From: a virus
Taxonomy: Duplodnaviria > Heunggongvirae > Uroviricota > Caudoviricetes
Reading direction: 5' to 3' (one strand)
IMG/VR virus record: IMGVR_UViG_2734482547_000016
Length of the DNA: 20,400 nucleotides
How positions within the stretch are numbered: the stretch's first letter is position 1; each line of letters opens with the position of its first letter. Under the pieces are notes generated by a model. That model was not told the DNA's origin. It saw nothing but the letters and a program-made list of their open reading frames with translations, and did no database searches. A program made the translations under genes and the position numbers. Below, one piece after another: positions 1 through 18,472 of this stretch.

Positions 1-393
1 ATTCAGGTTATGCCGCTCAATTCGCTGCGTATATCGCTTGCTGATTACGTGCAGCTTTCCCTTCAGGCGGGATTCATACAGCGGCCAGCCATCCGTCATC
101 CATATCACCACGTCAAAGGGTGACAGCAGGCTCATAAGACGCCCCAGCGTCGCCATAGTGCGTTCACCGAAGACGTGCGCCACAACCGTCCTCCGTATCC
201 TGTCATACGCGTAAAACAGCCAGCGCTGACGTGATTTAGCACCGACGTAGCCCCACTGTTCGTCCATTTCAGCGCAGACAATCACATCACTGCCCGGCTG
301 TATGCGCGAGGTTACCGACTGCGGCCTGAGTTTTTTAAGTGACGTAAAATCGTGTTGAGGCCAACGCCCATAATGCGGGCGGTTGCCCGGCAT
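1..393 (-). CDS. insB: IS1 InsB transposase, 3' end lies beyond the window start (partial)
   Basis: Reverse-strand translation from the window start gives ...[18 protein letters not shown], and upstream [29 protein letters not shown]..., matching IS1 InsB; it overlaps insA in a different frame as expected for the insAB' frameshift arrangement. Confidence 0.8.
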
Positions 394-587
394 CCAACAC
401 CATTCATGGCCATATCAATGATTTTCTGGTGTGTACCGGGTTGAGAAGCGGTGTAAGTGAACTGCAGTTGCCATGTTTTACGGCAGTGAGAGCAGAGATA
501 GCGCTGATGTCCGGCAGTACTTTTACCGTTACGCACCACGCCTTCAGTAGCTGAGCAGGAGGGACAACTGATGGAGATGGAAGCCAC
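312..587 (-). CDS. insA: IS1 InsA (transposition regulator, zinc-finger/HTH)
   Basis: 91-aa [46 protein letters not shown]... recognised as IS1 InsA; CxxC...CxxC motif present. Confidence 0.9.
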
Positions 588-2127: not shown

Positions 2128-2233
2128 AAATATCCCTCCTTTCTCCAGATTTCTTGTGTGCGAAAAACACCTTCTGCATGCATCAGGCGTAATTCTTCTT
2201 TGGTGTAATCGCTGGTTTTTACCCGCCCGTCGA
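2124..2233 (-). CDS. YbcO-like (DUF1364-type putative nuclease) copy A, C-terminal fragment running into the N gap
   Basis: Translation ...DGRVKTSDYTKEELRLMHAEGVFRTQEIWRKEGYL is identical to the C-terminus of the complete ybcO-like ORF at 3004..3294. Confidence 0.6.
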
Positions 2234-2483
2234 NNNNNNNNNNNNNNNNNNNNNNNNNNNNNNNNNNNNNNNNNNNNNNNNNNNNNNNNNNNNNNNNNNN
2301 NNNNNNNNNNNNNNNNNNNNNNNNNNNNNNNNNNNNNNNNNNNNNNNNNNNNNNNNNNNNNNNNNNNNNNNNNNNNNNNNNNNNNNNNNNNNNNNNNNNN
2401 NNNNNNNNNNNNNNNNNNNNNNNNNNNNNNNNNNNNNNNNNNNNNNNNNNNNNNNNNNNNNNNNNNNNNNNNNNNNNNNNNNN
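2234..2483. other. Run of 250 N (assembly gap or masked sequence)
   Basis: Directly visible; interrupts ybcO-like copy A and the 3' end of Q-like copy B. Confidence 1.
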
Positions 2484-3007
2484 AAAGCCATAACCATTGG
2501 TTTGTACAAAATAAATTCTGCCACCTTTAGCCAATGCTCAATGCGTCTTTCACAGGTTCTTAAACTCCATTTCGGGTGTGCATCATTCAGCAGTTCAGCC
2601 ATTTTGCGTTTGGTCATCCCCCGCCCCTCATACCGTTGCCGAAGGACGCTAATCAATCCTGGATGCTCTGCCAGCACCTCACTTATGACCCGATCAATAC
2701 ATAACGCCTCTGCATCAGTACAATGCGCCAGCCAGCTCTTTTGCTTACCGTTAATCATATCCCGCAAAAAAGCCTCAAGTTCAGACTTGTTCAGACCTGC
2801 TTTTTTCATCCTCCGGAGCGCCTCGTTAATTGCCGTTTTTGTCAGCTTTTTAGAGGTCAACATCAGGTTAAACATATTCCCCGTCTTACCGCCACCAATA
2901 TACGACCAGCGCCCCCACATACGTAGTTTTCCCTGAATCCAGACACTTTCCAGCGTGGTGAGACGAAGGTGTTCTCCGCTTTTTCCTGTATTCGTTGGGT
3001 AAATCAT
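2484..3007 (-). CDS. Putative late-gene antiterminator (Q-like), copy B; 3' end lost in the N gap
   Basis: Start MIYPTNTGKSGEHLRL... at 3007 overlapping the ybcO-like stop; about 90% identical to copy A over the first ~145 aa by eye, but with a divergent C-terminal segment (…KWSLRTCERRIEHWLKVAEFILYKPMVMA… versus …EWCFSTCEKRIANWLAVAEYALYIPMRESFAEKMA). Confidence 0.5.
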
Positions 3008-3294
3008 AAATATCCCTCCTTTCTCCAGATTTCTTGTGTGCGAAAAACACCTTCTGCATGCATCAGGCGTAATTCTTCTTTGGTGTAATCGCTGGTTTTT
3101 ACCCGCCCGTCGATTAAATCGTGGCACGAGCTACAGGCAATCGCTGCCTGCATATCGTGTGGCTTTATCGCTGTTCCGCACGTTCCCGCCAGTCGGTAAT
3201 GCGCCAGCACAGACGTTTCCGGATCGTGATTGCAGTAGCCAGGAATTCTGACGGTGCACATCTGCCCCCGCGCCGCTTTACGTAAATCCACCAT
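3004..3294 (-). CDS. YbcO-like protein (DUF1364-type putative nuclease, Cys/His-rich), 96 aa
   Basis: MVDLRKAARGQMCTVRIPGYCNHDPETSVLAHYRLAGTCGTAIKPHDMQAAIACSSCHDLIDGR... resembles the DLP12 YbcO family as I recall it. The ORF track extends to 3375; the start was chosen by homology-consistent length. Confidence 0.65.
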   Translation of the reverse strand: MVDLRKAARGQMCTVRIPGYCNHDPETSVLAHYRLAGTCGTAIKPHDMQAAIACSSCHDLIDGRVKTSDYTKEELRLMHAEGVFRTQEIWRKEGYL

Positions 3295-3468
3295 TACGCA
3301 AACTCCAGTAGCTGCGCGGCCACATTTTCGACCTGTTCCGGAGAGGAAAATTTTCGGTACAGGATCCAGTTCCACAGCACATTCAGTACAGATTTATAAA
3401 CCTGCTGAAACTCGGTTTCCTCCATATTCGCAAACGCGATAGATTTCGCCCGACGCCCACGACTACCA

Positions 3469-3718
3469 NNNNNNNNNNNNNNNNNNNNNNNNNNNNNNNN
3501 NNNNNNNNNNNNNNNNNNNNNNNNNNNNNNNNNNNNNNNNNNNNNNNNNNNNNNNNNNNNNNNNNNNNNNNNNNNNNNNNNNNNNNNNNNNNNNNNNNNN
3601 NNNNNNNNNNNNNNNNNNNNNNNNNNNNNNNNNNNNNNNNNNNNNNNNNNNNNNNNNNNNNNNNNNNNNNNNNNNNNNNNNNNNNNNNNNNNNNNNNNNN
3701 NNNNNNNNNNNNNNNNNN
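3469..3718. other. Run of 250 N (assembly gap or masked sequence)
   Basis: Directly visible; removes most of the ybcN-like gene. Confidence 1.
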
Positions 3719-3901
3719 GTAATCGAATCCCAGTTGCAGGAGTTTGAAAAAACGCTTGTGGAATGCGTAGTTACGCACACGCTTAAAGTCTGCGTGTATC
3801 CACTCACCTATTTTGATTTGATGCAGAAAATCGCAACTCTCCGGCGTCGCCGGGAGAAGTAAACCAGAAGAAGTTTGTTTGACCAGTTGTATATGCGCCA
3901 T
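3719..3901 (-). CDS. YbcN-like (DUF1367-type) nin-region protein, N-terminal 61 aa only; the rest is in the N gap
   Basis: MAHIQLVKQTSSGLLLPATPESCDFLHQIKIGEWIHADFKRVRNYAFHKRFFKLLQLGFDY... resembles the N-terminus of lambdoid YbcN-family proteins. The ORF-track segment 3383..3468 is in frame only by coincidence of N counting. Confidence 0.55.
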
Positions 3902-4176
3902 TTCTCAATCTCTCGATGGCGCAGTGCAGCAGATGCCAGTTGTTCAGGCTGACGTATAAAGTATAAATAAACTGGTTCCAGTGTAAAGCCCCCACATTGA
4001 TGGAATAAAAATCAAACAATAGATTGCTGGGATAAAAATACAACGCTTATTATTAAAAGCGGTTAGACAAATTAAATTTTAATGTTATGCAAATCTGCCA
4101 GATTAGCATAATATCTCATTTGAAAACCGCTGAAATAACAATCTTACCAGGATTAATCATATTAAGGTGAGTAAAT

Positions 4177-4263
4177 ATGGAAAACAACAAATCTGCACAT
4201 TACGCTCCTTTTTTATCTGTAATACTTTTTGTATTTTGTTGTGTATGGGCGGTATTTTTATAA
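4177..4263 (+). CDS. Candidate small hydrophobic peptide (28 aa, one predicted transmembrane helix)
   Basis: MENNKSAHYAPFLSVILFVFCCVWAVFL; SD-like AAGGTGAG 6 nt upstream of the ATG; stop lies 14 nt before a strong intrinsic terminator. Below the ORF-track size cutoff. Confidence 0.3.
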   Translation: MENNKSAHYAPFLSVILFVFCCVWAVFL

Positions 4264-4276
4264 AACACACCCACAA

Positions 4277-4310
4277 ATAAATCAAACCCGCTACAGCGGG
4301 TTTGATTTAT
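4277..4310. terminator. Bidirectional intrinsic terminator (15-bp perfect stem ATAAATCAAACCCGC / GCGGGTTTGATTTAT, loop TACA)
   Basis: Immediately downstream of the S8 peptidase stop on the minus strand and of the small ORF on the plus strand; A/T-rich flanks. Confidence 0.7.
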
Positions 4311-4317
4311 ATAGTTG

Positions 4318-6582
4318 TTATACGGAAACTGGCACACGAGCAGGCAATGGATAGTGAGCCCAGTTATTAGCATTTAAAGCTCTTACGCCATCAGCATAAA
4401 CTTGTGTGTTTCCATCTAATGATTTTAAAGTTACTACAATAGTTACAGGTAAAGGCTCCATTAAGGCCGGTTCATTCGCTCTCAACGTTGTTTTAGCCTG
4501 AAGAGCCCAGTTACCCGAAGTAATTCCTTTATTAAATGCCTTGCGATGAATTTTTACTGGTGACCACTTTCCACCATGCTCAATTTGAGCTCTCTCATAT
4601 CCAGATTGACCGTTTTCTCCTTCCATAGGCACTTTTCCTTTTATAGTATTATTCTCAATTAAGCCAAAACTTAGCTCTACGTTCGCGCGAACATATTCAC
4701 TGCCGGCATTAGGGTTCAGTGGTGGTGCATATGCAGCAGTAATTACAATCTCACCTTTAAATTTTCCATTTTGAATAAGTGCCGATGGTATGGGATAGTT
4801 TTCCTTTCTCCACCTCACCCCAGGAACCAAGAATGTTTGGAAAATCAGAGTAAACCTATCATCACTATCATATAAGGTCTCAATAACTTCATTAGGAATT
4901 CCCGCTCCCAAATAGCGTCTTTCACTTGGCGAGTAATCAGGAGAAGATAATTGAGCGGAATGAATTAATAATGCTTTAATCAATGATGGTGAAACATTAA
5001 AGTCTGAATTAGTGGCTATTCTCTGCCATGTATGCGCAGCTAAACTTGCCACAATTGGAGCAGCAAAACTAGTACCAAAATTAGAGCAAAGCCTATTATC
5101 TGGCCCTACGACCTTTAAACTGCTTGCTCCTACATTCCAAGGTCTATGAACCCCACCGCCAGCATGGATTATATCTGGCTTTGGAGTAAATACAGGCCCA
5201 GGGCCACGACGAGTATATGGTGTCGGTGTTCCAATTTCACTTAAAGCATCATTAGCTTCCATATGAGAAACTGAACCAACTGTTAGTGCTCGGACTGACT
5301 CTCCAGGAGAGGAAATTAAATCAGCACCTCCAAGCGGATCAGGATTTGGCCATGTACGTATAGGTTCATCTACATAATTACCTGCAGCAACTACAAACAA
5401 AATACCAAATTTATCGCTGAGTCGATCTAACTCCATCGCAAAATCACTAAACGTCTGCTCATTACATGGTCCGCCTCCCAAAGACAAATTCCAGACTTTT
5501 ATATCTGGTCTTTTATTTACAGCATCTGCTAGCCTCAGAATTAAATCTGATATATAAGATCCATTTTCATCTAAAGCACAAACATCATGGATTTTAGATT
5601 TTGTATCAGGAATCCATGGATGATTGTCATTTAAAAAATGAGCGCCTGATATCAATGAAGACACCATAGTCCCATGTTCATAACTCGTATCAGGAGGAAT
5701 TACGTATGTTTCCCTACTCACTACCCAAGGAGTAATTGTTGCCGCGATGGGGCTTACCCCAGTGTCAAATACAGCAACAATGGGTAATTCTTCTGATGGT
5801 ACGGGAAAGCTATTTGTTTCAATGCCAACAGAATCACTTACACTAACCGGGAATGCTGAATATTTTGGTTCTGGAATTAACGTTCTTATACCCGGGTAAT
5901 CAATGAGAATGTCTAATATATATCTATCATTTGGGGATAAATCCATTATCCTTAATAAGGGAAGACCACATTTTTGTCTAATCTCATCATATTTAACTCC
6001 GTGTTGTTCTAATATAGAAATAACGTTTTCATAGTTGTTGTAAGTTGCATCTTCACCTGTGTACTCAAATAGTCGTACAAGGATGTTTGATGATTCAAAC
6101 AAACCATCAGTGCCTCCTGGAACCTTCCTATTCTCATCCCAAGGTTCAATGCGCTCAATCGCGCTTAGATTAGCCAAAATCGCTTTAATATTCCGATGTA
6201 AAATGACTGACTCTAATACGTCAAAACAGCCGGCATGAGCAGCAACCAACATTTCATCTATTTTGGCATGACCGGCATTTTGCAATCCAGCATCTTGAGC
6301 AATTTTGTTCGGCCTATGCGTTTTGGCTATTCCCTGGTCTCTTAATTTGAAAACCAAAGTACCCAAGCTTCCAGGGTACTCTGAAAGTTTGGATTCTAAA
6401 TAATGTTTACTGGTTGTTAAATTTCTTACTAGCCCTTGTCTATATTCGGCTGTTACATCAACCAATACCTTTGCCCCACCGCCAGCGTTTACTATTGCAC
6501 CCAAGTCACTACTGGAAAAAGGGATTCTTAACATTGGGTTTGTAACTTTTGCGTTACTAAACTGTGTACCCCTTCTGCTCAT
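4318..6582 (-). CDS. Subtilisin-like S8 serine peptidase, 754 aa, no signal peptide, with long N- and C-terminal extensions
   Basis: Asp-His-Ser order with canonical motifs: VAVFDTG (Asp273), HGTMVSS (His303), AAGN oxyanion Asn (about 402), GTSFAAP (Ser505). N-terminus is hydrophilic. SD AGGAG upstream; start overlaps the upstream ATPase ORF by 26 nt. Confidence 0.85.
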   Translation of the reverse strand: MSRRGTQFSNAKVTNPMLRIPFSSSDLGAIVNAGGGAKVLVDVTAEYRQGLVRNLTTSKHYLESKLSEYPGSLGTLVFKLRDQGIAKTHRPNKIAQDAGLQNAGHAKIDEMLVAAHAGCFDVLESVILHRNIKAILANLSAIERIEPWDENRKVPGGTDGLFESSNILVRLFEYTGEDATYNNYENVISILEQHGVKYDEIRQKCGLPLLRIMDLSPNDRYILDILIDYPGIRTLIPEPKYSAFPVSVSDSVGIETNSFPVPSEELPIVAVFDTGVSPIAATITPWVVSRETYVIPPDTSYEHGTMVSSLISGAHFLNDNHPWIPDTKSKIHDVCALDENGSYISDLILRLADAVNKRPDIKVWNLSLGGGPCNEQTFSDFAMELDRLSDKFGILFVVAAGNYVDEPIRTWPNPDPLGGADLISSPGESVRALTVGSVSHMEANDALSEIGTPTPYTRRGPGPVFTPKPDIIHAGGGVHRPWNVGASSLKVVGPDNRLCSNFGTSFAAPIVASLAAHTWQRIATNSDFNVSPSLIKALLIHSAQLSSPDYSPSERRYLGAGIPNEVIETLYDSDDRFTLIFQTFLVPGVRWRKENYPIPSALIQNGKFKGEIVITAAYAPPLNPNAGSEYVRANVELSFGLIENNTIKGKVPMEGENGQSGYERAQIEHGGKWSPVKIHRKAFNKGITSGNWALQAKTTLRANEPALMEPLPVTIVVTLKSLDGNTQVYADGVRALNANNWAHYPLPARVPVSV

Positions 6583-7711
6583 ATGCTCCTGACTCCTTCA
6601 GAATGTTTGAAATTACTCTTGATGTAAGTTTGTACAAATTAGCAAGAACTCTGATAGAAAATAATTTTTTATCTTTAGAACGTAACCAACGAATTTCATC
6701 TTCGTAAGTGCTTAAATTTACACCTTCCATAAGCGATTGAGCAAGATACAAACGCCTATACAATTTATGGTGATTTATCACACTTGCACCTTCAATAACT
6801 GCATCCCTACGTGCATCCAAGCTCACCTGTTCAATTATTGCTCCGGATAATCCTTCCGATTTTCTTGATAAATCACTTAAATCTAGATCGCAACATATCA
6901 TATTCTTTAAACGATTTTTCCAAATTAACTCTCTCTGATGTATGTCAGGCAGAGGCATTGGAATTCTGAAGCTAAATCGCCTCCAGATTGCAGGATCCAG
7001 AAGTTGCTCATGGTTAGTTGAGGCAATAATTACCGTATCCTCTGATGCCGCATCCATATTCTGCAATAGTGAAATGACAACTCGCTGAAGCTCACCTATA
7101 TCTCTCTCATTACCTCTTGCTCCAGCTAAAGCATCAAATTCGTCTAAAAAAAGCACTGATGGCCTCTGCATTACATAATCGAAAACCTGTCTAAGATTTT
7201 TGCTGGTTTGTCCCAATAAACTACTAATCAAAGTATCGCAACGCACTGTAAGAAGTGGAAAATCTAAGCGGGTAGCGATGTACTTAGATAACATAGTCTT
7301 ACCTGTTCCTGGCTTTCCATACACGAGCATACGACTCGGCAATGCTGCATCAGCTTTAACAAACTCATCATAACGTTGAACATTAGTGATAAACTCTTCA
7401 ACACGGGTACTGATTGCTGCAGGCAGAAAAATCTCTGAACTGTCTAATTTAGGATAACTGACATCAACAGTGTTGAGTCGACTATCAATATCTACCGGTA
7501 ATGAGCCCAGAGATATCCCACCTCCAGCCCTTTGAGCTCCTGCCAACGCCTGGGGAGCTCTAAGCAACCTTTCTCTTATCATTCTGGCTTGCTTGACCTC
7601 CCCTTTTTGTTCGAGCTTATCTGCCAGCAACCCAGCATAATTACTAGCCATCGAAGCATTTGCCTTTGTTGCACCTTCAATGATTTTTAACACTTCTGAT
7701 AAATAATCCAT
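6557..7711 (-). CDS. AAA+ ATPase, 384 aa
   Basis: Walker A GKPGTGKT (aa 132-139), Walker B VLFLDEFD (aa 186-193), downstream IIASTN sensor-1-like motif; no TM segment; translationally coupled to the peptidase gene. Confidence 0.85.
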   Translation of the reverse strand: MDYLSEVLKIIEGATKANASMASNYAGLLADKLEQKGEVKQARMIRERLLRAPQALAGAQRAGGGISLGSLPVDIDSRLNTVDVSYPKLDSSEIFLPAAISTRVEEFITNVQRYDEFVKADAALPSRMLVYGKPGTGKTMLSKYIATRLDFPLLTVRCDTLISSLLGQTSKNLRQVFDYVMQRPSVLFLDEFDALAGARGNERDIGELQRVVISLLQNMDAASEDTVIIASTNHEQLLDPAIWRRFSFRIPMPLPDIHQRELIWKNRLKNMICCDLDLSDLSRKSEGLSGAIIEQVSLDARRDAVIEGASVINHHKLYRRLYLAQSLMEGVNLSTYEDEIRWLRSKDKKLFSIRVLANLYKLTSRVISNILKESGAYEQKGYTV

Positions 7712-7904
7712 TCAACACTCCCACAACAAAAAGCCACAGCAATCAAAAAATGAGCACGCAGAATCAAAATACTCTCTAATCGTAACGCATTTTGAGATTT
7801 TTGATACGTTTTTTTGGGATTATGTAACGCCAAATGGTCATTTTGTGTCAGAAAAATAAATCTTAGTACCGAGAATATGTAGCTTCCATCCTTCATCGTT
7901 CTAT

Positions 7905-8336
7905 TCATCCCTGATCTCCAAGCCTCTCTCGAAAACCATTCTGATAAAACGCCAGCACACGCTGCATAACTTCACTCTTCCGGCACTCGCGACAGATTAT
8001 GTTCAGACGCCTGTCGTAGCGGCGTATTTCTCCGTCTGGTAATGACCAGATAAGGTCCGGATCAACCACAGATGGTTTCTTCACCTTTGCCCTGGATAGT
8101 TTTTTGCGGGCATTTTGCCAGTCCTTACGAGCCTGTTCAGACGGGAATAACCCGTAACCAGAGTTGTATACATCGCCACTGGCAACCAGCTCTCTGGCGA
8201 GAACGCTCATCAGATATCTTGTCGCACCTGTCTTGGCCTCCAGTTGTCGTAACGTCTCGCGTCCACTCCGGCGTACTAGCTCAACAACCTGCCCTTTAAT
8301 TTTTTCCCGCTCTTCTTGTGTAAATACTTTTGCCAT
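7905..8336 (-). CDS. Hypothetical phage protein, about 143 aa
   Basis: ORF with GGAGG 5 nt upstream of ATG (MAKVFTQEEREKIKGQVVELVRRSG...); basic and charged. The ORF-track start at 8351 is a TTG; the ATG at 8336 is preferred. Confidence 0.5.
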   Translation of the reverse strand: MAKVFTQEEREKIKGQVVELVRRSGRETLRQLEAKTGATRYLMSVLARELVASGDVYNSGYGLFPSEQARKDWQNARKKLSRAKVKKPSVVDPDLIWSLPDGEIRRYDRRLNIICRECRKSEVMQRVLAFYQNGFRERLGDQG

Positions 8337-8351
8337 AAGCGCCTCCGGCAA

Positions 8352-12359: not shown

Positions 12360-12515
12360 ATGCAAAAAATCGACCTCGGCAACAACGAATCCATGGTGTG
12401 CGGCGTGTTCCCCAACCAAGATGGAACGTTCACTGCTATGACGTATACCAAAAGCAAAACATTTAAAACCGAAACTGGTGCGCGCCGATGGTTGGAGAAG
12501 CACACAGTAAACTAA
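12360..12515 (+). CDS. ydaF: Small prophage protein (YdaF-like, DUF1391-type), 51 aa
   Basis: MQKIDLGNNESMVCGVFPNQDGTFTAMTYTKSKTFKTETGARRWLEKHTVN resembles Rac YdaF (recollection); stop overlaps the convergent sieB stop. Confidence 0.55.
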   Translation: MQKIDLGNNESMVCGVFPNQDGTFTAMTYTKSKTFKTETGARRWLEKHTVN

Positions 12516-13000
12516 CGATTAAAACGTCTACTCCTGCTGTTCCAGAATAACTTCATAAAATGGGAGTATTTTTCGGTGACGAGATAATAAGAACAGTTTG
12601 CGCTATCACTCTGATGTTGAATGATGCCCTTCCGTTCTAATTTTTTCATAACCGGGTTACGGCAAGGAGAAGTGATAATAAGATTTCCTGTTTTAAGGAA
12701 ATCTTTAAATACAGCTATTTCTTTCTCAGATAAACGAAGCAATACTCGTTGCTCTGGTAGTAATGAATAATGCTTTTGAATATGTGCTCGCAATCTTGAG
12801 AAGGAAATGGCGACCACGAAAGAAAAGGCAAAAACGATAATCTGAAAGAGCCAAGGTATTTCAGTATAAGCATTGAATGCGACAGTAAACTCTTTCGGTA
12901 TCAGCCAGAGAGTGAGACCAAAAATGATAATCGTATACATAAGTCTTTCGAGTGGCTCGTTAGCAAAAAGTTTCAACAATGGAGTAAATACATCCAACAT
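12512..13000 (-). CDS. sieB: Superinfection exclusion protein B (SieB), membrane protein, 162 aa
   Basis: MLDVFTPLLKLFANEPLERLMYTIIIFGLTLWLIPKEFTVAFNAYTEIPWLFQIIVFAFSFVV... matches SieB of Rac/lambda as recalled; hydrophobic N-terminal half. The ORF-track start at 13123 is an upstream extension. Confidence 0.8.
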   Translation of the reverse strand: MLDVFTPLLKLFANEPLERLMYTIIIFGLTLWLIPKEFTVAFNAYTEIPWLFQIIVFAFSFVVAISFSRLRAHIQKHYSLLPEQRVLLRLSEKEIAVFKDFLKTGNLIITSPCRNPVMKKLERKGIIQHQSDSANCSYYLVTEKYSHFMKLFWNSRSRRFNR

Positions 13001-13430
13001 ATCAATAACTCTCAACTGTAAGGGTATTGAAATGTTAACACAAGCTCTCGCTGTAGGGGTATAGCCGAGACCACCGAAGCCCGGAGGTGGTGAAATAAAA
13101 CTGGGCGCAACACGAAGGCGCATTTCCGATATCCATAAAGAGTCGGTCTTGTCTGTTAAATTTAAATGGTGGGAGTGCGCCTCCGGTTGTAAATAACGAC
13201 ATTGCTGTGTGTAGTCTTGGCGGCATCAGTTTTTTCTTGAAGTTCGGCTGATGTCCGCCCTTTTTAAAGTGAATTTTGTGATGCGGTGAATGCGGCTAAG
13301 CGCACGCGGAACAGTTAAAAGCATCAGTGTTATGGGGGGATTATCCGGCGTTAATTGTTAACTGGTTAACGTCACCTGGAGGCACCAGGCACCGCATCAA
13401 CAAGGTTCATTTGTGAAAATGGAGATAATT

Positions 13431-14273: not shown

Positions 14274-17200
14274 ATGAGCACAAAACCACTCTTCCTGTTA
14301 CGGAAAGCGAAAAAATCATCCGGTGAACCTGACGTCGTCCTGTGGGCAAGCGACGATTTTGAATCGACCTGTGCCACTCTGGACTACCTGATCGTTAAGT
14401 CAGGTAAAAAACTGAGCAGCTATTTTAAAGCTGTTGCCACGAATTTTCCTGTCGTTAATGACCTGCCCGCTGAAGGTGAGATCGATTTTACCTGGAGTGA
14501 ACGCTATCAACTCAGCAAAGACTCCATGACATGGGAACTAAAACCGGGAGCAGCACCAGACAACGCTCACTATCAAGGCAATACCAACGTCAACGGCGAA
14601 GACATGACTGAGATTGAGGAGAATATGCTACTCCCAATTTCTGGCCAGGAACTGCCCATTCGTTGGCTTGCTCAACACGGCAGCGAAAAACCGGTAACGC
14701 ACGTTTCACGCGACGGACTCCAGGCATTACACATTGCTCGGGCTGAAGAACTACCGGCTGTTACTGCCCTGGCTGTTTCCCACAAAACCAGCCTGCTCGA
14801 CCCGCTGGAAATTCGCGATCTCCACAAACTGGTTCGTGACACTGACAAAGTTTTCCCTAATCCTGGTAATTCAAACCTGGGACTGATAACTGCTTTTTTC
14901 GAAGCATACCTGAACGCTGACTACACCGATCGAGGACTGCTGACAAAAGAGTGGATGAAGGGTAATCGTGTTTCACACATCACTCGCACGGCTTCCGGTG
15001 CTAATGCTGGCGGCGGAAACCTCACCGATCGCGGCGAAGGTTTCGTACACGATCTGACGTCACTGGCGCGCGACGTAGCCACTGGCGTACTGGCCCGTTC
15101 AATGGATCTGGACATCTATAACCTTCATCCGGCACACGCTAAACGCATTGAGGAAATTATCGCTGAAAATAAACCGCCCTTTTCTGTTTTCCGCGACAAA
15201 TTCATCACCATGCCTGGCGGGCTGGATTATTCCCGCGCCATCGTGGTTGCGTCCGTAAAAGAAGCACCAATTGGGATCGAGGTCATCCCCGCGCACGTCA
15301 CTGAATATCTGAACAAAGTACTGACTGAAACCGATCATGCCAACCCTGATCCGGAAATCGTGGATATTGCCTGCGGTCGCTCCTCTGCCCCGATGCCGCA
15401 GCGAGTAACAGAAGAAGGAAAACAGGATGATGAAGAAAAACCGCAACCATCTGGAACAACGGCAGTTGAACAGGGAGAGGCTGAAACAATGGAACCGGAC
15501 GCAACTGAACATCATCAGGACACGCAGCCGCTGGATGCTCAGTCACAGGTAAATTCTGTTGATGCGAAATATCAGGAACTGCGGGCAGAACTCCATGAAG
15601 CCCGGAAAAACATTCCATCAAAAAATCCTGTCGATGCCGATAAATTGCTTGCTGCATCACGTGGTGAATTTGTTGACGGAGTTAGCGACCCGAACGATCC
15701 GAAATGGGTTAAGGGGATCCAGACTCGCGATTCTGTGTACCAGAACCAGCCAGAAACGGAAAAAACCAGCCCGGATGTGAAACAACCTGAGGCAGTAGTG
15801 CAACAGGAACCGGAAATAGTCTGCAATGCCTGCGGTCAGACTGGCGGAGATAACTGCCCTGACTGTGGGGCGGTGACGGGCGACGCAACATACCAGGAAA
15901 CATTCGATGAAGAGAATCAGGTTGAAGCTAAGGAAAAAGATCCGGTGGAAATGGAAGGCGCTGAACATCCGCACAATGAGAATGCTGGCAGCGATCCGCA
16001 TCGTGATTGCAGTGATGAAACTGGTGAAGCGTCAGCTCCTGTAGCAACTGAAATCATGTGGCCGTCATATTTCGAGCCTGGCCGCTATGAAAACCTCCCG
16101 AACGAGGTTTATCACTCCGCCAACGGAATAAGCAGCACGATGCTGAAGGATGCCCGTATCAGCCTGATGTATTACCACGGACGGCACATTGCCGGAACTA
16201 TTCCGAACGAGGAAAGTGATGCACTGCTGCGTGGGCGGATCATTCACAGCTATGTTCTGGAAACGGATAAATTCGCTGATGAATATGCCATTCCGGTACC
16301 GGTTCCTGAATATGTGGTTACTACTTCTAGCGAACTGATCGCCATCATTAAAAAACACAATGCCAGTCTGCCAGCACTGATGACACCAGAGCAGATGAAA
16401 GAGTGGATCGAAAGCTACAACAGCACTCTTATACAGCCACTGTCTGTAAGTGCCGGGGCCGAAGAAACAGGCATCCTTTACGGTTCGCTTCCGGTGGAAT
16501 TTCGGCGTATTCCTGAGGGGGAAAAACACACAGCATCAGCAATGAAAGCCTGTATTAAAGAATACAACGCAAGCCTCCCTCCTCTGTTGAAAACCAGTGG
16601 AGCACGGGAGCAGCTTCTGGATCAAATTGAAACTGTAGACCCAGAACTGGCAAAAAAAGAACGTGCTAAATCTTTGCCTTACAACATCAGTGGCACAAAA
16701 GAGCAATTAACCGAAATCGCACGGAAAATTCGCCCGGAACTGGTGACACTGGAGGACTGGCAAAAACGCCAGCAAGAAGAAAATGCCGGGAAAACGTTTA
16801 TCAGTCCGGAGATGTATGAACAGGCAAAAAATATTCACGCGGCACTGCAAAACAATACCGATGCAGCAAGGCTACTCAACCACCCGGATCGCAAATCTGA
16901 AATCAGCTATTTCGGGTTTGATGAAGAAACCGGGCTGGAAATCAGGGTCCGTCCTGATATCGAAATCCGGCTGCCATACGAAAGCATTTGCGCTGACGTG
17001 AAGTCAGTCAGCCTCGGTTATGTGCGACAGGAACGACTTAAAGATCGCCTGCACCGTGAAATTATTGAGCGTGATTATCACCTCAGCGCCGCAATGTATT
17101 GCGATGTGGCAAACCTGGACAAATTTTTCTGGATCTTCGTCAACAAAGATGCTGGCTATCACTGGGTGGCAGTCGTGGAAGCCTCGCAGGAACTCCTGGA

Positions 17201-17345
17201 ACTTGGTCGACAGGAATATCGCCGGACGCTACGCCAGATAAACGAAGCCCTGGAGACAAACAACTGGCCAGCACCGATTACCGAAAGTTATACCGACGAA
17301 TTAAACGACTTTGATCTTCGTCGTCTTGAAGCACTGAGCATCTGA
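14274..17345 (+). CDS. recE: RecE-family exonuclease VIII (5'-3' dsDNA exonuclease), 1023 aa
   Basis: N-terminus [21 protein letters not shown]... and a C-terminal PD-(D/E)xK-type nuclease region (…[10 protein letters not shown]…VKSVSLGYV…) resemble RecE; acidic low-complexity central linker; followed by an annealing-protein gene. Confidence 0.75.
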
Positions 17346-17356
17346 GGAAGGACACA

Positions 17357-18409
17357 ATGAACGAATTAACTCAACAAGAAAATATTAACTCTAATGTTGC
17401 GGTTTTCAGCCCTCAGTCCCTGGCTGCAATTCAGACATTTTCCCAGGTAATGGCTTCCGGCATGGCTACTGTACCGGAACACCTCCGGGGAAATCCATCA
17501 GACTGCATGGCCATCACCATGCAGGCGATGCAGTGGCAAATGAACCCTTACGCAGTAGCTCAGAAAACTTTCGTTGTGAATGGTGTGCTCGGATATGAAG
17601 CGCAACTGGTTAATGCCGTAATCAGTACTCGTGGGCCGCTAACCGGGCGTATTGAATATGACTGGTTCGGGCCGTGGGAAAAAATTATCGGGAAATTTGA
17701 AATCAGGAAGAGCGACAAAGGGAAAGAATATCGTGTACCTGGCTGGAAGCTGGCCGATGAAAACGGGATCGGTGTTCGTGTCCAGGCAACACTACGCGGC
17801 GAAAGTAAACCACGCGTACTGGAATTACTTCTGGCGCAGGCCAGAACACGTAACTCAACGCTATGGGCCGACGATCCTCGCCAGCAGCTTGCCTATCTAG
17901 CGCTGAAACGCTGGGCGCGCCTTTATTGCCCCGAAGTGATTCTTGGAGTGTACACCAGGGACGAACTGGACGAGCCACAGGAAAAAATCATTAATCCGGT
18001 TCAGGAACATAAAAACACTTCCGCTTGCCGCGCGGAACGTGAAACAACAATTATTGAGCAGGATGCCGGGGAAAACTGGATCGATGCTTTCCGTGAACGT
18101 ATTGAGCAGGCACAAAGCACCGGGGAAACAACAGCACTTCGCCAGGAAGTGGAAGATCATAAAAATACACTTGGCGCTCTCTATACGGAACTTAAAGGAA
18201 AAGTGGTTCAGCGTCATCACCGTCTCAATGCTATTGCCCGTATCGAGAAGATGATAAATGACCTACCTTCTTCAGGTGATCCAGAAGCAGAACAAAAATT
18301 TACTGCTCTGGAAAATACGCTGAATGCTGCCCGGCCACATCTGGGTGAATTATATGAGGCGTATAAAACGACACTGACAGATATGAAACCAGAATATATC
18401 GGCTCCTGA
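17357..18409 (+). CDS. Putative single-strand annealing protein (RecT-like partner of RecE), 350 aa
   Basis: Immediately downstream of recE (11-nt spacing) on the same strand; segment LWADDPRQQLAYLALKRWARLYCPEV resembles the conserved RecT region; length differs from the K-12 RecT I recall. Confidence 0.5.
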   Translation: MNELTQQENINSNVAVFSPQSLAAIQTFSQVMASGMATVPEHLRGNPSDCMAITMQAMQWQMNPYAVAQKTFVVNGVLGYEAQLVNAVISTRGPLTGRIEYDWFGPWEKIIGKFEIRKSDKGKEYRVPGWKLADENGIGVRVQATLRGESKPRVLELLLAQARTRNSTLWADDPRQQLAYLALKRWARLYCPEVILGVYTRDELDEPQEKIINPVQEHKNTSACRAERETTIIEQDAGENWIDAFRERIEQAQSTGETTALRQEVEDHKNTLGALYTELKGKVVQRHHRLNAIARIEKMINDLPSSGDPEAEQKFTALENTLNAARPHLGELYEAYKTTLTDMKPEYIGS

Positions 18410-18472
18410 TATTGACTTTGGCGGTGTAGCCTCACCGCCATCACAAAATTTTATTTTATGAGAGAAAAGACA

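Follow-up and report, generated by a model that had tools for sequence, protein, structure and literature searches.

We found that the open reading frame at 4318-6582 of the window (the whole stretch of 20,400 nucleotides that was analysed) almost certainly encodes IetS, the protease of the two-gene system IetAS (Gao_Iet; RefSeq 'IteAS'), judging by its profile matches. The explanation that best accounts for the data overall, and one that we consider quite probable, is a prophage-borne IetS that is built like a pro-subtilase and kept in check by the ATPase IetA. IetAS is an already known toxin-antitoxin (TA) and anti-phage system, and the added insight is modest and lies at the level of the domains. 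The two genes are:

4318..6582, minus strand: ietS (RefSeq 'iteS'), open reading frame with ATG start, translated to a 754-aa S8 subtilase
6557..7711, minus strand: ietA (RefSeq 'iteA'), encoding a 384-aa classical-clade AAA+ ATPase, the antitoxin partner

The family match lies far beyond chance, since E-values go down to 7e-301. This value was obtained with the PADLOC profile IetS PDLC02197, which aligns aa 12-753 with profile positions 3-748/749, and the reading frame also scores 1043.4 bits against the NCBIfam equivalog NF042956 (IetS), passing its cutoff of 900. The reading frame 6557-7711 is matched by PADLOC IetA (E=3e-142) and reaches 524.8 bits against NCBIfam NF042959 (IetA; cutoff 510). 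The DNA is 99.8% identical to E. coli genes annotated iteS/iteA in RefSeq, where the pair is labelled "anti-phage peptidase IteS / ATPase IteA", and the queried region is present in 78 of 5426 complete E. coli genomes. As a prophage copy of a system that current annotation recognises, the gene requires no new name, and the protein belongs to a named, experimentally studied family, which an earlier note on this DNA had missed. PDB sequences searched with full IetS gave weak S8-core matches alone, so that there is no solved IetS in the copy searched. Among the literature matches listed for ietAS there was no paper on structure or mechanism, and the names IteS, IteA and Gao_Iet retrieved unrelated papers only.

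The first description of IetAS was as a TA system that stabilises the plasmid pTiC58, and the Agrobacterium Ti/Ri IetAS is that of Yamamoto et al. 2009, J Bacteriol 191:4656 (both as cited in PMC13069673, PMC8562856). Members of the family have been studied in Agrobacterium, Mycoplasma and B. cereus and as ietHAS in E. coli, and it has been shown that defence by the family is abortive infection, which a single phage protein can trigger (PMC13069673, PMC8562856, bioRxiv 10.1101/2022.08.27.505566). The proteases are toxic in the cell and are neutralised by the ATPase (PMC13069673, PMC8562856), while IetAS defence homologues protect against phage experimentally (PMC13069673; bioRxiv 10.1101/2022.08.27.505566). 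The mechanism was stated as unknown in a 2026 paper (PMC13069673). By analogy with these systems, the ietS product of the prophage would be the toxin, or abortive-infection effector, of IetAS.

Compared with IetAS/Gao_Iet of Gao et al. 2020 (as cited in later papers), the pair shows the same gene order and overlap, both proteins are full-length equivalog matches, and there is no detectable difference; at the sequence level it is a member of that system. The Agrobacterium IetAS also consists of an AAA+ ATPase followed by an S8 protease of ~735 aa, and the PADLOC profiles for IetS and IetA that match the E. coli pair also match a homologue on pRi. Agrobacterium-type IetS shares the catalytic and C-terminal domains at about 27% identity, whereas its N-terminal region is barely alignable with the IetS N-region profile (hhalign probability 2%); moreover, the system is plasmid-borne and its genes lie ~50 nt apart instead of overlapping. 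The Mycoplasma pair TA132/133 comprises an AAA-ATPase of 353 aa, the antitoxin, and a subtilisin-like protein of 757 aa, the toxin, and deletion of the antitoxin is lethal (PMC8562856). Likened by description, it has the same two-gene layout and sizes, but it is chromosomal in a Mollicute. For ietHAS, the active site of the protease was required for defence, ATPase-mutant constructs were unobtainable, and the third gene was found to be an essential SNF2-type helicase (PMC13069673). This variant holds the ietAS core, but the helicase gene is absent beside our pair, where the following neighbours were found; we therefore rejected an assignment to the three-gene variant.

7905-8351: DUF977/Ren-like gene, neighbour of the ietAS pair
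3383-3901: NinB-like gene, neighbour of the ietAS pair

The earlier note had already pointed to a neighbouring ATPase, and this AAA+ gene indeed overlaps ietS on its upstream side. The last 26 nt of ietA overlap the start of ietS, and the ietS ATG has an AGGAG ribosome-binding site 4 nt before it. Wherever a locus had a full-length ietS and sufficient sequence 5' of it, ietA was the gene immediately upstream in the same orientation, and the end of ietA runs into the start of ietS in 51 of the 51 loci with an extractable upstream ietA. These counts come from a locus scan built on alignment A1, the divergent alignment A4 being too variable for scanning. Translation of ietS is probably coupled to that of ietA. 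The closest PDB relatives of IetA are p97/Cdc48 (best, E about 4e-53) and also PAN/FtsH, and its conserved residues include Walker A K138, Walker B D190/E191, the sensor-1 Asn and the arginine fingers R244/R245.

4909..5781, minus strand: S8 catalytic domain of IetS (D273, H303, N402, S505), aa 268-558

The only Pfam match in IetS is Peptidase_S8 (PF00082) at aa 268-544 (E=4e-26, above the gathering score), and in the predicted structure the catalytic fold reaches about aa 558. Neither D273, H303 and S505 nor the oxyanion residue N402 varies across 46 close and 64 distant homologues; judged by these residues, the S8 active site of IetS is intact. We found no signal peptide or membrane segment in IetS: the maximum 19-residue Kyte-Doolittle mean is 1.48, and this peak falls inside the catalytic core. 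The N-terminus is polar and basic, its first 14 residues being disordered in the full-length AF2 model. By its sequence, IetS is a cytoplasmic protease. The absence of a secretion signal had been remarked on before, together with an S8 core at aa 265-520 between two large flanks that sequence methods miss. Both observations held, as did the start of the core; its end had been set about 25-40 residues too early.

We modelled full-length IetS with AF2 (pLDDT 83, pTM 0.88). The flanks of the catalytic domain were also profile-searched separately, as the earlier note had suggested, with no sequence match on either side, and the models predict ferredoxin-like domains (FDs) in front of the catalytic domain and a β-sandwich behind it. 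The statement that the flanks hold no recognisable domain is thus true at the sequence level, because neither the N-terminal ~265 aa nor the C-terminal ~190 aa has a Pfam match (at E<=10 in 20 homologues) or a PDB profile match. The parts of the flanks, all on the minus strand, are:

6451..6582: N-terminal peptide, aa 1-44, motif NP..(I)PF..DL....GG
6379..6450: long α-helix, aa 45-68, pLDDT above 90 in the AF2 models
6142..6363: FD1, first predicted ferredoxin-like domain (β-α-β-β-α-β), aa 74-147, highly conserved
6310..6333: GIAKTHRP, the 'AKSHRP' loop of the family, assigned to β1-α1 of FD1, aa 84-91
5872..6084: FD2, second predicted ferredoxin-like domain, aa 167-237, ending in L..L...PG.R.I.PEP.Y
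5785..5856: variable linker from the N-region to the catalytic domain, aa 243-266
4321..4890: predicted C-terminal β-sandwich domain, aa 565-754, with the highest conservation in IetS

In the N-terminal peptide, N15, P16, F22, D26, L27, G34 and G35 of IetS are invariant or nearly so. Two short strands form in the peptide when the whole protein is modelled (pLDDT 85-87), but a model of the N-region by itself leaves it at a pLDDT <60; since it is ordered only in the former case, it probably packs on another domain of IetS. The linker at aa 243-266 shows the lowest conservation (0.32) and a low pLDDT, and it varies from 21 to 30 residues among homologues.

The models suggest that the architecture of IetS resembles that of a cytoplasmic pro-subtilase. 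One FD together with the catalytic domain superposes on unprocessed pro-subtilisin E and pro-PCSK9 over 315 and 301 residues, respectively, while mature subtilases superpose on the model over fewer residues (about 230-245). Foldseek gave a probability of 0.99 for the N-region against the PCSK9 pro-domain, with no PDB match at E<=0.001. FD2 is the likeliest equivalent of an I9 pro-domain. The ferredoxin-like fold is very common, and AlphaFold may echo a pro-domain pose learned from PDB subtilases; Pfam I9 itself has no match at E<=10 in 20 N-regions and none appeared in the PDB profile search. The claim that there is no recognisable pro-peptide is borne out by sequence, and the autoinhibitory N-terminal segment that was proposed with it gains support at the fold level from the superposition on the pro-enzymes. 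We lean slightly towards a pro-domain-like autoinhibitory or chaperone role for part of the N-region. Compared with the I9 set (pro-subtilisin E/PCSK9, PDB 3whi, 5vla, 2p4e; the POIA1 inhibitor, 1v5i), IetS differs from pro-subtilisin E and PCSK9 in carrying an extra FD, a long helix and a conserved N-terminal peptide in front, and in having a 21-30-residue tether, a cytoplasmic location and no Pfam I9 match. An internal duplication is not detectable, as hhalign gives FD1 against FD2 a probability <1%.

The AKSHRP loop is the best-conserved non-catalytic motif of the family and equals the catalytic core in conservation. Across 64 IetS of 25-48% identity, A86 and K87 never vary, and A84, R90 and P91 each reach 90% conservation or more; K87 is not kept in Agrobacterium-type IetS. 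We place the motif in the β1-α1 loop by our reading of the secondary structure of the model, where the pLDDT falls to about 70 (full-length model). ACT domains bind their ligand at the β1-α1 loop. The N-region might thus be mainly a sensor, in which tandem ACT-like FDs use AKSHRP to bind either a small molecule or some phage protein and gate the protease allosterically, because ACT regulatory domains are among its fold neighbours, scoring as well as pro-domains, and the most conserved motif would occupy that loop. No sequence match to ACT families was found for the IetS N-region, and we regard this account as rather unlikely; the same holds for its corollary that IetA would merely set the threshold. 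The idea of a portable sensor module was rejected, as the N-region was found only before IetS-type S8 domains: its profile retrieved 305 of 1.84 billion cluster representatives, in each case at the N-terminus, and in 10 of 10 matches of intermediate length that were checked, the S8 domain starts at about aa 240-275.

The C-terminal domain is conserved to the same degree as the catalytic core, and it would therefore seem to be an integral part of the protein, whether structural, substrate-docking or partner-docking. Its predicted fold is positioned like the β-sandwich behind the catalytic domain in KP-43 (PDB 1wmd) and Tk-SP (3afg), secreted subtilases with a C-terminal β-barrel/jelly-roll domain, and it has no Pfam match; another likeness of the predicted structure is to the collagenase-CBD type. 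Compared with KP-43 and Tk-SP, however, the IetS domain is larger (190 aa, three helices), and its conservation far exceeds the need of a passive stabilising domain. The domain was rejected as a free module, since the three short matches to it (L053, L057, L060) lack a full-length reading frame and look like truncated gene remnants.

Under the preferred pro-subtilase-like arrangement, one FD, most likely aa 167-237, would sit on the catalytic domain at the site of an I9 pro-domain, while FD1 (aa 74-147) would present AKSHRP in the loop position that ACT domains use for ligand binding. The pro-domain-like module may fold IetS and inhibit it transiently, and IetS would still mature or 'breathe' into an active form. 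The IetA hexamer would then spend ATP to restrain IetS, most simply by unfolding or remodelling it. A phage product that blocks or overloads IetA, or that binds the surface of FD1 or the C-terminal domain, would allow active IetS to build up and cleave cell proteins, and growth would halt before the phage cycle is completed. Translocating AAA+ unfoldases usually carry an aromatic pore-loop-1 residue. The pore loop of IetA is SSLLGQTS, and the residue in question is Leu, non-aromatic, in 51 of 52 sequences, which weakens the unfoldase step; that IetA acts on IetS as an unfoldase is therefore a tentative and somewhat doubtful proposal. Mature subtilases cannot refold without their pro-domain. 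In a bolder version, which we put forward as a speculation that is probably wrong, IetAS would be an ATP-driven zymogen switch, in which the 'antitoxin' IetA irreversibly unfolds each IetS that has matured spontaneously. If a phage product stalled or saturated IetA, a burst of protease would follow, and the AKSHRP loop and the C-terminal domain would be handles for IetA or for the trigger. For the question of how IetAS works, the AKSHRP loop, the C-terminal sandwich, the pro-domain-like module and the fully conserved but non-aromatic pore loop offer handles, and could help to show how a cell leashes a lethal cytoplasmic protease and how a phage cuts the leash.

The main role of the pair might instead be addiction, i.e. 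stabilisation of the prophage as a TA system with phage defence secondary. This would fit the first description on pTiC58, as cited in later papers (PMC13069673, PMC8562856), the presence of relatives on conjugative plasmids and the location of our pair inside a mobile element. Defence has, however, been shown for IetAS homologues (PMC13069673; bioRxiv 10.1101/2022.08.27.505566), and both roles share a mechanism and are compatible with each other; addiction as the main role appears unlikely.

It is less probable still that IetA is an activator, its AAA+ ring stripping a resting zymogen of the pro-domain-like module on infection. The predicted placement of the N-terminal domain, the membership of IetA in the classical unfoldase clade and the disordered basic 14 residues of IetS, which could be a handle, would agree with it. 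Published genetics are opposite to its prediction, since IetS is toxic when IetA is missing, cells do not survive loss of the ATPase and ATPase-mutant constructs were unobtainable (PMC13069673, PMC8562856), and the pore loop that lacks the usual aromatic residue argues against it as well. We therefore disfavour this account.

That IetS is simply a secreted subtilase whose I9 pro-peptide can be removed and whose C-terminal domain serves secretion or stability is hardly credible: the fold likenesses to pro-domains and to the KP-43/Tk-SP/collagenase-CBD domains speak for it, but the lack of a signal peptide or membrane segment, the overlap with a cytoplasmic AAA+ gene in all 51 loci with an extractable ietA, the anti-phage equivalog cutoffs passed, the published intracellular toxicity of family members (PMC13069673, PMC8562856) and the prophage accessory-gene slot speak against it. 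The earlier note had held that finding a pro-domain and a secretion-associated domain would indicate an ordinary extracellular protease; pro-domain-like and protease-associated folds were indeed seen, and yet that conclusion is not supported, because IetS is a cytoplasmic protein tied to an AAA+ ATPase.

The carrier of ietAS is a Rac-like lambdoid prophage of E. coli, and zero tRNA genes were found within the window. Two further elements frame the operon:

7712..7904, minus strand: AT-rich spacer of 193 bp upstream of ietA
4277..4310, minus strand: hairpin with a 15-bp stem followed by a T-rich tail, 7 nt past the ietS stop codon

The spacer presumably houses the operon's own promoter, although a consensus scan of 7712..7904 found none, and the hairpin is likely to be the operon terminator, as judged from its sequence. 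The ietAS block has the replication genes of the prophage on one side and its NinB/Q region on the other. Across 3500-7500 the GC content drops to 0.30-0.41, compared with ~0.50 in the prophage flanks, which marks the pair as an inserted block. The same ietAS pair is carried by phage vB_EcoS-683R6.

The ORFs 4318-6582 and 6557-7711, both on the minus strand, are a member of the IetAS (Gao_Iet) family, of which each testable defining feature was found. The PADLOC IetS model matches the product of ORF 4318-6582 over its whole length (E=7e-301) and PADLOC IetA matches the 384-aa product of 6557-7711 (E=3e-142), while in the window ietA overlaps the start of ietS by 26 nt. Both products also exceed the curated cutoffs of NCBIfam equivalogs, with 1043 bits against 900 for IteS_antiphage and 525 bits against 510 for IteA_antiphage. 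Hence, IetS belongs to an already characterised family and is not an uncharacterised protein; its nearest protein cluster holds 1093 member sequences. Window positions 4000-7900 are present at ≥99% identity in 78 of 5426 complete genomes (E. coli), and on E. coli chromosomes 99.8% identical in DNA the RefSeq gene names are 'S8 family anti-phage peptidase IteS' and 'anti-phage ATPase IteA'.

RefSeq and NCBIfam use 'iteA/iteS', whereas the literature uses 'ietA/ietS'. In the deposited record of phage ON470595.1 (locus L062, 4872-8265), IetA carries the label 'cell division protein FtsH' and the start of the S8 gene is placed 16 codons downstream of the RefSeq start. These spellings and the 'FtsH' annotation obscure the link to the published system.

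The protease gene is preceded by an AGGAG ribosome-binding site 4 nt ahead of its ATG:
4318-6582, minus strand, ietS ORF, 754 codons, ATG start

Peptidase_S8 (aa 268-544) is the sole Pfam domain recognised in IetS. No variation occurs at the catalytic D273, H303 and S505 or at the oxyanion N402, either in 46 homologues (50-84% identity) or in 64 distant ones (25-48% identity). In 20 homologues, the N-terminal ~265 and C-terminal ~190 residues gave no Pfam match at E≤10, nor did these regions match anything in a profile search against all sequences of the PDB. A search for a signal peptide or membrane segment was negative, and a secreted subtilase was rejected on this ground. The earlier note had described an S8 core between two unrecognised flanks, lacking a secretion signal; this description is therefore correct, except that the core end had been set about 25-40 residues too early. 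By its sequence, IetS is a cytoplasmic, catalytically intact subtilase.

To describe the flanks, we used an AlphaFold2 model of full-length IetS built from 46 homologues, which is confident (mean pLDDT 83, pTM 0.88); the PDB copy searched holds no solved IetS structure.

Regions of IetS in the AlphaFold2 model
aa 15-30, N-terminal peptide, ordered in the full-length context only
aa 45-68, long helix
aa 74-147, first ferredoxin-like domain (FD1), beta-alpha-beta-beta-alpha-beta
aa 167-237, second ferredoxin-like domain (FD2), beta-alpha-beta-beta-alpha-beta
aa 243-266, tether, variable and of low confidence, 21-30 residues long among homologues
aa 268-558, S8 core
aa 565-754, beta-rich C-domain

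Mature subtilases align with the model over far fewer residues than chains comprising pro-domain and catalytic domain. The aligned length is 315 of 355 residues for unprocessed pro-subtilisin E, 322 for EpiP, 308 for CylA and 301 for single-chain pro-PCSK9, compared with about 230-245 for thermitase, proteinase K and the PCSK9 catalytic chain. Since the surplus of about 70-85 residues corresponds to one pro-domain, one ferredoxin-like domain appears to occupy the I9 pro-domain position in the predicted structure. Similarly, the extra aligned length for KP-43 and Tk-SP would place the modelled C-domain where their beta-barrel/jelly-roll domain sits. The C-terminal pattern of FD2, L..L...PG.R.I.PEP.Y, may resemble the signature in which I9 pro-peptides end, L..L...P.V.YVE.D. 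Tests for I9 and ACT membership by sequence were negative and no homology between FD1 and FD2 was detectable; the resemblance to I9/ACT is at the fold level only.

Conservation is comparable in FD1 (0.70), the C-domain (0.75) and the catalytic core (0.72), and lower in FD2 (0.50) and the tether (0.32). Among 64 divergent IetS, the sole invariant residues ahead of the core are F172 and, in the AKSHRP loop between beta1 and alpha1 of FD1, A86 and K87; conservation of R90 and P91 in this loop is ≥90%. With an N-region profile, 305 proteins were found among 1.84 billion representatives, all of about 735-790 aa or fragments. Because the match was always N-terminal, and the S8 domain followed from about aa 240-275 in 10 of 10 intermediate-length matches checked, the N-region is integral to the IetS protease family and is not a sensor module common to other effectors.

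The nearest solved relatives of IetA are p97/Cdc48, followed by PAN, FtsH and CdvC models. Across 52 sequences there is conservation of K138 in Walker A, D190/E191 in Walker B, the Asn of sensor 1 and the two arginines R244/R245, and these motifs indicate an AAA+ ATPase with its catalytic residues intact. In AAA+ translocases, pore loop 1 usually has an aromatic residue. In IetA this loop (SSLLGQTS, aa 163-170) is nearly invariant in the 52 sequences and has Leu at that position; only the archaeal homologue has Tyr.

IetAS is already known as a system. It was first reported as a plasmid-stabilising toxin-antitoxin in which the protease is the toxin and is neutralised by the ATPase (Yamamoto 2009, cited in PMC13069673, PMC8562856); a role against phages was described later (Gao 2020). 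In Mycoplasma, the ATPase gene could be deleted only along with the protease gene, whose product is toxic to E. coli (PMC8562856). The B. cereus system aborts infection, and YosG, a protein of SPbeta, is sufficient to switch it on (bioRxiv 10.1101/2022.08.27.505566). For ietHAS, the three-gene variant with a helicase, the protease active site is required for defence and ietA-mutated constructs were unobtainable (PMC13069673). We rejected this variant for the window pair, since no helicase gene adjoins it. In relatives, the protease has been shown to be both the toxin and the effector of defence; the active ATPase serves as its antidote, and infection is abortive.

IetS may be organised like a pro-subtilase, in which one N-terminal domain would serve as intramolecular chaperone or inhibitor. 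The conserved surfaces through which IetA, a trigger or substrates act would be the C-domain and FD1, the latter with its AKSHRP loop. IetA might spend ATP on holding the protease down, possibly via unfolding, which is attractive because mature subtilases are known to be unable to refold without their pro-domain. This restraint is the least certain step, and the non-aromatic pore loop counts against it. The domain reading of IetS, not found in the literature examined, is a modest addition.

When one genome per species was scanned, 59 loci were obtained, the majority in Gamma- and Betaproteobacteria, with distant members in a Thermoplasmatales MAG, Turicibacter and Chryseobacterium. Wherever a locus has a full-length ietS and its upstream region is long enough, the gene immediately before it on that strand is ietA. 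The end of ietA runs into the start of ietS at all 51 loci that allowed its extraction; for the pair studied here, translation of the two genes is probably coupled. Relatives were also found on conjugative plasmids, among them Ri/Ti-type plasmids of Agrobacterium and Rhizobium. The Agrobacterium-type IetS retains recognisable catalytic and C-domains, whereas the N-region has diverged almost past detection. At three loci (L053 4001-4489, L057 4001-4472, L060 4001-4282) only the last ~100-165 residues matched (54-66% identity), with neither a full-length ORF nor ietA upstream, which suggests 3' ends left over from ietS decay in Saccharospirillum and Pseudomonas.

In E. coli, IetAS is typically prophage-borne. 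The pair studied here sits in a mobile element, a Rac-like lambdoid prophage, between replication genes (O-like, DnaC-like, DUF1627, DUF977/Ren-like) on one flank and a NinB-like gene, a DUF1364/HNH gene and Q-type antiterminators on the other; racR-like, sieB, recE/recT and integrase genes lie farther out.

Neighbouring features in the window
312-587, minus strand, IS1 InsA ORF with zinc-ribbon and HTH domains, at the left end beside the prophage Q/late region
1585-2127 and 2219-3127, minus strand, pair of Q-like antiterminator genes in tandem, each matching phrog_753 (E about 1e-77 to 1e-79)
3383-3901, minus strand, NinB-like gene, 172 aa, of which only the first 64 residues match NinB/Orf (phrog_319 positions 1-64 of 159)
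7905-8351, minus strand, DUF977/Ren-like gene of exclusion type, directly upstream of ietA
12512-13123, minus strand, sieB, exclusion-type prophage gene near ietAS

GC is 0.30-0.41 over the pair versus about 0.50 in the flanks, and a hairpin with a 15-bp stem and T tail follows the ietS stop codon, so that ietAS resembles an inserted accessory unit carrying its own terminator. At the corresponding position, the isolated phage vB_EcoS-683R6 encodes a protein of 99.6% identity. With the Ren-like/DUF977 gene and sieB close by, the prophage therefore has several possible anti-phage functions.

Between the hairpin and the NinB-like gene lies a ~375-bp spacer (3902-4276, about 30% GC) with no ORF of ≥80 aa, which belongs to the low-GC block that arrived with ietAS. 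The adjoining NinB-like gene may be chimeric or rearranged, since it is unmatched beyond its first 64 residues. For the second Q-like ORF, the likely start is an internal codon near 3007; the related prophage of strain Trh52 has only one such gene, against two here. Trh52 carries tRNA and lysis genes where IS1 InsA sits in the window, and IS1 may have interrupted or truncated the prophage. Neither the 3' portion of recE nor recT (16043-18420) can be aligned with the otherwise similar Trh52 prophage; recE encodes 1023 aa and recT 350 aa, versus 269 aa for recT in Trh52, which suggests a mosaic recombination module.
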